From the NCBI RefSeq assembly GCF_964204645.1, contig NC_134033.1, forward strand, positions 8,874,655-8,938,654: a stretch of 64,000 nt of DNA. Reading direction: 5' to 3'. Under the pieces are notes generated by a model that was not told the DNA's origin, did no database searches, and saw nothing but the letters and a program-made list of their open reading frames with translations. Position 1 is the stretch's first letter. Every line of letters begins with the position of its first letter. Positions 28,901-31,900 of this stretch are shown here, one piece after another. The translations under genes and the position numbers were made by a program. This DNA comes from Tubulanus polymorphus (Eukaryota; Animalia; Nemertea).

Positions 28901-31900
28901 CTGTCTTATCATTTCAACTGTCAAACAATTTATCATTTCAACTGTCAAACAATTTATCATTTTAACTGTCAAACAATTTATCATTTCAACTGTCAAACAA
29001 TTTATCATTTCAGCTGTCAAACAATTTATCATTTCAGCTGTCAAACAATTTATCATTTCAACTGTCAAACAATTTATCATTTCAACTGTCTTATCATTTC
29101 AATAGTCGAACAATTTATCATTTCAACTGTCAAACAATTTATCATTTCAACTGTCAAACAATTTATCATTTCAGCTGTCAAACAATTTATCATTTCAACT
29201 GTCACACAATTTATCATTTCAACTGTCAAACAATTTATCATTTCAACTGTCACACAATTTATCATTTCAACTGTCAAACAATTTATCATTTTAACTGTCT
29301 TATCATTTCAATAGTCGAACAATTTATCATTTCAACTGTCAAACAAATTATCATTTCAACTGTCAAACAATTTATCATTTCAACTGTCAAACAATTTATC
29401 ATTTCAACTGTCAAACAATTTATCATTTCAATTGTCAAACAATTTATCATTTCAACTGTCAAACAATTTATCATTTCAACTGTCAAACAATTTATCATTT
29501 TAACAGTCAGATATTTAAACTGTTAGATATTTAAATCATTTAACTCGATTCAATAATTATAATGTTGAATTGTTACTCTTTACGCCAGTTTTTATGTTTA
29601 ATTGTTTCATAATGCTTTGATTTATGTGATTTTAAGTATTTACCTCCGCAATAACAATGCACTTTTTCATTAGGATTGAATTTTCAAAATTCATCATCTA
29701 AATTACATTGAACTGCAATATCTTTATATGATTTTTCATTATCTAATTCACATTGAATTCCAATATTTGATGAATTTTCATTATAGATAATTTGTTTATT
29801 ATCAAAATTGAAATAATATAATTGTCTTTTTTCAATTCTTAAGTTAATCAAATCATTGTAATCTTTTGAAAGTATTATATCATCATTTCTTTCATTGAAA
29901 GGAGTTTTAAGAATATTAATTATGTTTTCATCTAAAGTTCCTTTAAAATTTAAAACTGTATTGAATACTTTAGCATTTTTAACACCATTATCAAAAGTAT
30001 CTACTAGTTCAGTAATTAAATATGTTTCATTTGATAATATTTGATTAATTACAGTAATATTTTCAATTTTATAATACCTTGCGTGCACTAAATTTGTTGC
30101 TGAAATATAATTTTTAATGTAAAACTGTGAAAATGATTTATTGGTTTCATTGATTTCGATTTTAAAGTTGGGTTCTTCTTCTTCTGTCTTCATTTTAATA
30201 ACAAAATTTTTATTAAAACTCATTCAAATATAAATATTCACTGTTTTAAATATGAATTATTTCACTCACACTTTTATATTGAATAATCTATCAATTTATA
30301 TGTTATTCATATATATTTTATTCATGTATATGAATATTTTAAGAGTAATAGGGATAATAGGCTTTCAAGTTAAAGGTTGAACGGTCGAGTTCATTAAAAA
30401 TGAAAAACATGAAAATAATAACGATTTCTACTTGAATTAGGAGTGAAACTCATAAAAAATGAAAAATAATTCTCACACACTCGAATTCATTTCACTCACA
30501 CTTTACTCACACTTTTTTCTAGCGAGTAAAAATGAAAAATAAATTCGAGTGTGTGAGAATTATTTTTCATTTTTTATGAGTTTCGCGACTAATTCAAGTA
30601 GAAATCGTTATTATTTTCATGTTTTTCATTTTTTATGAGCTCGACCGTTCGACCTTTGGCTTGAAAGCCTATTATCCCTATTACTAGTAGTGAGTGAGTA
30701 AGTAATTAGTGTTTGGCAAGGCATGAAGTAATATATATAGAAAGAAGGGCATTGTGCGGAGAAAAGCGATAATTTAAATCAGCACCAATATCTGAGGGAC
30801 GAGTAATTAGGGCAGACTCAACTATGTGGGATAGTTTTACTTGCCGACATCGCCGACATTGGGATCGAAGGACTGGGTGTGTGCGTCGATTACCCTAAAG
30901 TGGCTGTGGTCGAGGGCTGTGTGTGTGCGTGGATTACCCTTATATAAAGTGGCTGGGTGTGTGCCTGGATTACCCTTACATAAAGTGACTGGGATCGAGG
31001 GGCTGGGTGTGGCGGGGATTAACCTTATATAAAGTGCCTGGGATCGAGGGGCTGGGTGTGTGCGTGTAATAGCCTCACATAAAGTGGCTGGGATCAAAGG
31101 GCTGGATGTTTGCGTGATTTACCCTTATATAAAGTGGCTGGGATCCATCGAACCCAATGTCGGCACGTAGAACTAACCTACATTAGATATCTCTTCCAAT
31201 GTCGGCGATGTCGGCAAGTAAAACTAACCTACATTCAATTGCCGGCCCTTCTCACTGTATGATTTCTTAACATTGCGTCTGAGGATCCAAATCACAACTT
31301 CCGTTTCTATGTAATCATACACCGAAGGAACTACAATCCCATACTTTCCTATAGGCCTTTTTGATCCATTTGTTCAAAATGGAAGAGAAATGAGAATTTT
31401 TCTTAAGACGATGTACCGCACAATTCGGATCAAGTATGAAATATGGTCATGTAGTCCCTCAGTGCGGAAGCTTAAGATAAAATGAATGAGTGATTAGGTT
31501 CATAATTCTGTATTTGAATTATAACATCGGCAATCCCGACATTCCGACACTCCCGACATACCAGCAATCCGACATACCGGCAATCCGACATACCCGACAA
31601 TTCGACATACCACGATCCAAGCACCTCTCTACAGGGGATTATTAGGAACCGAACGCCCCACGATCCCGGTACCTCTGTACAAGGGAATATTAAAAACCAA
31701 ACTCCCACGATCGCGGTATTTCTCTACAGGGGATTATTAGGAACCGAACGCCCAATGATCCCAACATCTCTCTACAGGGGATTATTAGGAACCGAACGCC
31801 CCAGCCTTACAAATATATATTCTCAAAACAACTGGCCTGGTTACATAATGACTGGAATGTCTGTATGTAGGTTTGCAGCATTGCCGGCGTGCCGGTTTGT

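Follow-up and report, generated by a model that had tools for sequence, protein, structure and literature searches.

Terminal hairpins with strand-biased mismatches as candidate self-priming ends of small, probably Maverick-type elements in Tubulanus polymorphus

A family of small elements in Tubulanus polymorphus was found to carry a terminal hairpin that is predicted to close flush with the last base of the element, and whose mismatches are biased towards one strand. We put about an even chance on this being a self-priming hairpin with one marked arm, at the ends of likely non-autonomous Maverick-type elements. The question addressed is how ends are copied in Maverick/Polinton-type elements, chiefly those without a protein-primed polymerase. 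The hairpin-priming idea itself is already known (bioRxiv 10.64898/2026.07.28.741278); the present locus adds the strand bias, a fixed asymmetry between the arms, the lack of flip/flop among integrated ends and copying from arm to arm, with population-level evidence spanning hundreds of ends.

The window (the whole stretch of DNA that was analysed, 64 kb) has 36.7% GC, contains microsatellites and holds four related AT-rich elements, A to D (22-25% GC; 2.5-2.8 kb; Table 1). The two ends of C are 99% complementary across 232 nt and the TIR of D reaches 92.5% over 306 columns, so that TIRs of a few hundred bases, as in Mavericks/Polintons, were present in C and D; the TIR of A is about 60 nt only. 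The tip is AGTAAT in four of the five intact tips (A, C and D) and AGTAGT in the fifth (B), the end motif of Mavericks being (AGT)2 or (AG)3 in the accessible text of PMC8097293 and exact (AGT)2 occurring in B only. An exact 6-bp target-site duplication encloses the whole of C, the one copy that could be tested (1/1), A, B and D each being without one tip. Judging from the sequence, the elements are likely small, non-autonomous members of the Maverick/Polinton type; the ends and the target duplication agree with the Maverick label given by the sequence-only reading, but a core gene to go with it was not found in the 12 frames tested. Without later insertions, A, C and D measure 2.45, 2.84 and 2.73 kb with unlike contents, and a size constraint is possible (n = 3). 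The later insertions lie at 21752-22419 (~670 nt, inner arm of A) and 45317-46476 (~1160 nt, interior of D), and C holds at 28120-29500 a tandem array of ~1.4 kb, made of 24-nt units with interspersed 17-nt units, whose minus strand reads an 8-residue repeat.

Table 1. Coordinates of the elements and of their terminal features in the window
Feature	Position	Strand	Length or sequence	Remarks
Copy A	from 19366		2453 nt without its insertion
Copy B	24512-26266			left part missing
Copy C	27846..30685		2840 nt	tips AGTAAT...ATTACT
Copy D	44061-47949		2729 nt without its insertion
Left tip of A	19366..19425			outer arm only
Right end of A	21727..22486	+		inner arm split by insertion 21752-22419 (668 nt); core present; outer arm lost
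Fold-back of B	26145..26266	+	122 nt	tip AGTAGT
Left end of C	27846..28073	-		outer arm and nested core hairpin; without inner copy of the tip
Right fold-back of C	30344..30685	+	342 nt	inner arm 30344-30492, outer arm 30537-30685
Core, outer arm of C	30542..30561	+		inverted copy 30468-30487; 5-bp stem, tandem G.A/A.G, two pairs, 2-nt loop (3′-ending strand)
Left fold-back of D	44061..44190	-		outer ~20 nt missing
Right fold-back of D	47799..47949	+	151 nt
Right TIR of D	47637..47949		about 310 nt	outer half is the hairpin; pairs with 44061-44363
Left target-site duplication of C	27840..27845		AGTAGT
Right target-site duplication of C	30686..30691		AGTAGT
179-codon frame	29684..30223	-		begins near hairpin end of C; A and D have homologues

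Twelve element frames, taken from 137 stop-to-stop frames, were compared with Pfam and none matched at the curated cut-off; pPolB, rve integrase, capsid, ATPase and protease were not found among them, nor was a match to an NS1/Rep nickase-helicase. In the copies no gene for a polymerase, helicase, nuclease or integrase acting on the element ends was found. Two of the 12 frames (25659-25991 and 46704-46865) gave sub-threshold C2H2 zinc-finger matches, and nine frames compared with PHROGs gave one weak, unnamed match. For the 179-codon frame, homologue, ESM Atlas, related-locus and PHROGs searches returned no homologue; a frame in B (25257-25622) is a diverged paralogue with 27% identity to the hairpin-end frame of A, C and D. 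The AlphaFold model of an element protein, with a pLDDT of 35.5, was too poor for use, and small hydrophobic frames were seen at 24779-24997 and 24510-24758. The terminal 18-mer and the core 20-mer each had 0 matches in viral contigs; 61 metagenome matches of the 18-mer, the longest matching the elements over 46 nt, were judged to be chance.

The fold-backs of B, C and D that the sequence-only reading described were present and far more stable than shuffled sequence: the C hairpin folds at -150.4 kcal/mol (z -31; 0/100 shuffles as stable), that of D (right) at -59.8 kcal/mol (z -17.3; 0/200) and that of B at -51.3 kcal/mol (z -15.3; 0/200). The subfamily words common to both arms, and the TT/CC mismatch between the inner and outer arms of D that is mirrored at both ends, were also as that reading had them. 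Its picture of a hairpin at the right end of each copy held for B, C and D. Not all ends carry one, the intact left tips of A and C being without a flush fold-back. A itself has no intact hairpin, because a 668-nt insertion splits its right end and the outer arm is lost. The word said to be at both arm positions of A was found in its left outer arm and right inner arm. The core, placed by the same reading at or near the loop, forms the tip of the B and D hairpins; in C it stands within the stem, twice, once in each orientation. In all eight cores the 10-nt "loop" can be read as a tandem G.A/A.G followed by two more pairs, with 2 nt left as the loop, and the core nearest the tip has one orientation in 6/6 ends carrying one.

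The geometry of the ends is the first line of evidence for the self-priming reading. The inner arm is an inverted copy that begins exactly at the first base of the element in 5/5 inner arms (with one change in D left), and the 3′-ending strand is therefore predicted to pair its last base facing the interior; the predicted probability of pairing between this base and the first base of the inner copy was 0.94 in C (base 30344), 0.94 in D and 0.61 in B. The flush arrangement recurs at three hairpin lengths (122, 151 and 342 nt). The palindrome lies inside the TIR and adjoins the target-site duplication, the right end of C abutting the duplication and the hairpins of B and D being flush with the tip.

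Raw genomic reads labelled with the same species (run X5, of which 1934 million letters or about 12% were scanned) bear on copy number and hairpin length. At 30685, 1573 X5 reads enter unlike flanks, which confirms the C tip, and 447 X5 reads of host repeat join the two flanks of C without the element, i.e. an empty site. Depth on D was 2293 at the tip as compared with about 4-5 in the flank; provided that the flank is single-copy, the genome holds several hundred ends. The 342-nt form of C is a minority: depth falls to about 300 at 30463-30505, whereas the two bins beside it have 840 and 1208, and among the 15 of 138 joints listed, reads that leave out 73-75 nt (197, 103 and 79 reads), 138 nt (191), 60 nt (140) or 79 nt (77) of the C hairpin were common. 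Loose ends at 30400 (365 reads) and 30629 (995 reads) are near reverse complements by eye and probably mark a further subfamily, the two arms of which carry an extension of another kind. Hairpin lengths thus vary widely, growing via nested inverted insertions. The outer arm was covered 1.53 times as deeply as the inner arm, so many ends must be without a hairpin; this excess agrees with ends that lack the inner arm, as in A and C, and some units with two outer-type ends are possible.

The second line of evidence is the strand bias of the mismatches. Of 17 distinct mismatch events counted over stems and tip, 14 place a G.T or a tandem G.A on the 3′-ending strand and three are of the mirror types (binomial p 0.013); once the tip variants are set aside, the count is 12 of 15 (p 0.035); events were chosen by eye and share ancestry, one T.T and the C loop columns were left out, and both p values are rough. 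Among the three exceptions, that at 30488 is confined to C, the pairing base being present in 212 of 221 reads. The tandem G.A recurs at positions 98-99 of C and 47-48 of D, and where it stands the opposite strand would carry pyrimidine mismatches; tandem GA-AG mismatches are described in the available part of PMC8163305 as stacking strongly in DNA. That CpG decay alone produced the T.G pairs was rejected, since positions 27, 28 and 47 are non-CpG and G.A pairs are transversions. Strand-biased deamination was judged unlikely, given that on the 3′-ending strand C outnumbers G in the TIR adjoining the hairpin (5/5 ends) and that deamination cannot yield G.A. With ViennaRNA the 3′-ending strand was preferred by 3-6 kcal/mol as DNA and by 8-22 kcal/mol as RNA.

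A third line comes from a fixed difference between the arms. Position 35 from the tip is T in 5/5 inner arms and C in 6/6 outer arms, giving a T.G mismatch (Fisher p 0.002, a rough value for related copies, with two further 9-mer matches outside the elements dropped). Neither T>C nor G>A at this pair occurred among the 40 of 63 variant rows listed (about 1400 and 3600 reads), in which the lowest share was about 12%, flip/flop being expected to give about 50%. The flip/flop isomers that had been proposed for the loop were thus not seen, 11/11 arms of integrated copies standing in one arrangement, and the flip and flop isomers that terminal resolution yields in parvoviruses were not found among integrated copies. 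Positions 27 and 28 are looser: normal pairing was seen there in 25% and 18% of reads.

The arms also change together. In reads on D, the variant shares of inner/outer arm at six paired positions were 56/41, 45/43, 69/81, 71/80, 16/18 and 21/43%, and the shares correlate (Pearson r 0.86, p 0.03; Spearman 0.71, p 0.11; n = 6); double-sided change was found in 4 of 57 predicted pairs of the four window hairpins. The claim that the structure is maintained is supported to this extent, arm pairing being kept across subfamilies. The pair 30423/30606, however, restricts this argument: it is G-C in C, with the same G in the left arm of C, but A in 99% and T in 98% of X5 reads, as in all contig depth of X1-X3. 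That C carries so rare a variant in each of its three arms suggests that one arm serves as template for another, and paired change is then no proof of selection by itself. Mismatches nevertheless stand on both sides of the converted position 80, and it appears from the arms compared that some mismatches, namely position 35 and those on both sides of position 80, resist arm-to-arm copying.

Taken as self-priming, the hairpin would form in single-stranded DNA, after excision or melting of the end. The strand that ends 3′ at the tip would fold back to its last base and prime copying of the interior, a host or helper polymerase extending the folded 3′ end. The retained mismatches may mark the outer arm for cutting or integration; such marking would explain the absence of inverted (flop) integrated ends. 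The second end could be rebuilt from the first through TIR pairing, and the enzymes would be supplied by an autonomous partner outside the window. The role as a self-priming site, which the sequence-only reading had already suggested, fits the predicted geometry and the strand bias, but the 15 of 46 joints listed at D (lowest 13 reads) gave no sign of snap-back, free or tip-to-tip molecules. Joints on "opposite strands" (63, 20 and 25 reads) were considered as free snap-back DNA and rejected, since the nested inverted core of C yields the same joints. Further results speak against self-priming: a flush hairpin is missing from the left tips of A and C, both of them intact, the outer arm is covered more deeply than the inner one by the factor given above, DNA energies favour the 3′-ending strand by 3-6 kcal/mol only, and positions 27 and 28 pair normally in 25% and 18% of reads. 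A bolder form of the proposal is that an integrase-mobilised, Maverick-type lineage abandoned protein priming for parvovirus-like hairpin self-priming, a conserved wobble and sheared-pair asymmetry allowing only the outer arm to be cut and integrated; this would be an independent one-way end like that of MVM, for which one complete hairpin per element is enough. We regard it as possible but on balance unlikely.

The most credible competitor, though we would not expect it to prevail, is that selection keeps the fold as a signal which binds proteins or protects the end (for packaging, for loading of the integrase or as a block to exonucleases), replication itself being protein-primed like that of canonical Mavericks. 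The evidence for a strand-specific fold fits such a signal equally well, the tips resemble the (AGT)2 motif of Mavericks with pPolB (PMC8097293, accessible text), and the mismatches of the vaccinia hairpin, according to the part of PMC8956199 concerned, are required for virion maturation and not for DNA synthesis. A signal, however, need not be flush with the last base, which it is at three lengths here, and a paired 3′ end would presumably hide the template end that protein priming needs.

Somewhat less probable still is that the hairpin arises as a by-product: ends that break or are displaced would fold back and be repaired repeatedly, while arm-to-arm copying keeps the arms alike without benefit. 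Accidental annealing is named as an alternative in the section concerned of bioRxiv 10.64898/2026.07.28.741278, and the wide variation in length with growth by nested inverted insertions, the rare variant shared by all three arms of C and the two intact tips without a hairpin are what this account would lead one to expect. Arms that are remade or freely converted should nevertheless shed their mismatches, yet position 35 differs in 11/11 arms and the converted site has mismatches to either side; G.A pairs, which are of the transversion type, moreover contribute to the strand bias in three contexts.

It seems improbable to us that the selected structure is an RNA hairpin (a terminator, stabiliser or source of small RNA) formed by transcripts directed outward, into the element end. 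A bias towards G.U wobbles is typical of RNA stems, RNA energies favour the 3′-ending strand by the larger margin of 8-22 kcal/mol, and the right end of D lies downstream of a + strand frame. Against this, the intact hairpins of B and C and the inner arm of A are at the end that the frames lead away from, in antisense, Rfam gave no match in 19300-48200, and there is no reason for an RNA stem to stop at the last base of the element. Finally, the reading of the hairpin as a free MITE, with the elements as composites bracketed by two MITEs, can hardly be upheld and is already largely refuted: each side of the unit does show a perfect tip and the 1.53-fold outer excess leaves room for some units with two outer ends, but depth at D drops by 95% across the outer tip and by 9% across the inner edge, the inner flank is kept in 5/5 ends with the TIR extending about 160 nt further inward, and the target duplication of C encloses the whole element, so that the occurrence mostly as a free-standing MITE with its own target-site duplication on both sides, which the sequence-only reading had named as fatal to its proposal, was not observed.

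With the self-priming reading preferred, the closest precedent is the preprint cited above (bioRxiv 10.64898/2026.07.28.741278, July 2026), which in the section available describes palindromes adjacent to the target-site duplication in endogenous virophages (subtypes 1, 2, 5 and 6) and a PLV (subtype 4) of Halocafeteria seosinensis, proposes hairpin priming for them, ties such palindromes to elements without pPolB and calls for tests. The Halocafeteria virophages and PLVs and our elements are alike in having the palindrome inside the TIR and adjoining the target-site duplication. They differ in that the former have 52 nt (subtype 5), a protist host and capsid and replication genes, whereas hairpins of 122-342 nt stand here on small elements without a recognised core gene; section 7 of that preprint contains no fixed arm asymmetry, strand-biased mismatches or arm-to-arm copying, all of which are present here. 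Our literature search, mostly outside subscription journals, found terminal palindromes in such elements only in this preprint; 10.1101/2022.05.25.493380 was rejected as a precedent, for it concerns protein hairpins only. Vertebrate Mavericks/Polintons share with our elements TIRs, a 6-bp target-site duplication, an AGT-type tip and intron-less frames in the accessible text of PMC8097293, a paper in which the word "palindrom" is absent; the present elements differ in being 2.5-2.8 kb long and in having no pPolB, integrase, capsid, ATPase or protease found in them.

Hairpin ends are also known from viruses, and the comparison is closest for one-sided ends. The left-end hairpin of MVM is reported in a single flip orientation, comparable to the one orientation seen here. 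As described in the part of PMC1185569 concerned, the left-end hairpin of MVM/LuIII resembles ours in being a 3′ hairpin with a small built-in asymmetry and an origin active on one side only, and a 3′ terminal hairpin flush with the end, as in parvoviruses, is what the predicted fold gives here. Parvoviruses, however, are ssDNA viruses that need the NS1 nickase and have no 6-bp target-site duplication, while our elements are without an NS1/Rep match. The densovirus JcDNV likewise has a long ITR (547 nt) whose outer 130 nt form a hairpin, but its hairpins have a Y shape and are found in both flip and flop forms (PMC3738899, relevant part), the orientation being fixed in our elements. Vaccinia telomeres are alike in that mismatches of the terminal hairpin are kept and matter; unlike our elements, vaccinia has covalently closed, flip-and-flop ends and a large non-integrating genome (PMC8956199, part concerned). 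If the self-priming reading is true, integrase-mobilised elements would be linked to parvovirus-style replication, and it makes sharp predictions on the folding strand, on the junction molecule to be expected and on what the partner element should lack. If it is false, the locus would still offer a clear example of selection for a single-strand DNA fold at the end of a transposon.

Several other repeats were observed in the window. A and D contain internal imperfect palindromes at 19850-19915, 20048-20142, 46980-47065, 47200-47275 and 19425-19476, which fold at -13 to -32 kcal/mol; the first four are composed of related short repeats, and we take these palindromes to be reminiscent of baculovirus hr arrays. 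Two other long inverted repeats, at 11060-11849 (216-nt arms, 68 nt apart) and 39963-41480 (252-nt arms, 1014 nt apart), have no match to the A-D family. A broken Gypsy-type LTR retrotransposon lies immediately to the right of D (48106-51565) with reverse transcriptase and RNase H domains in Pfam, the reverse transcriptase at 48106-49236 matching RVT_1 with an E value of 3e-29.
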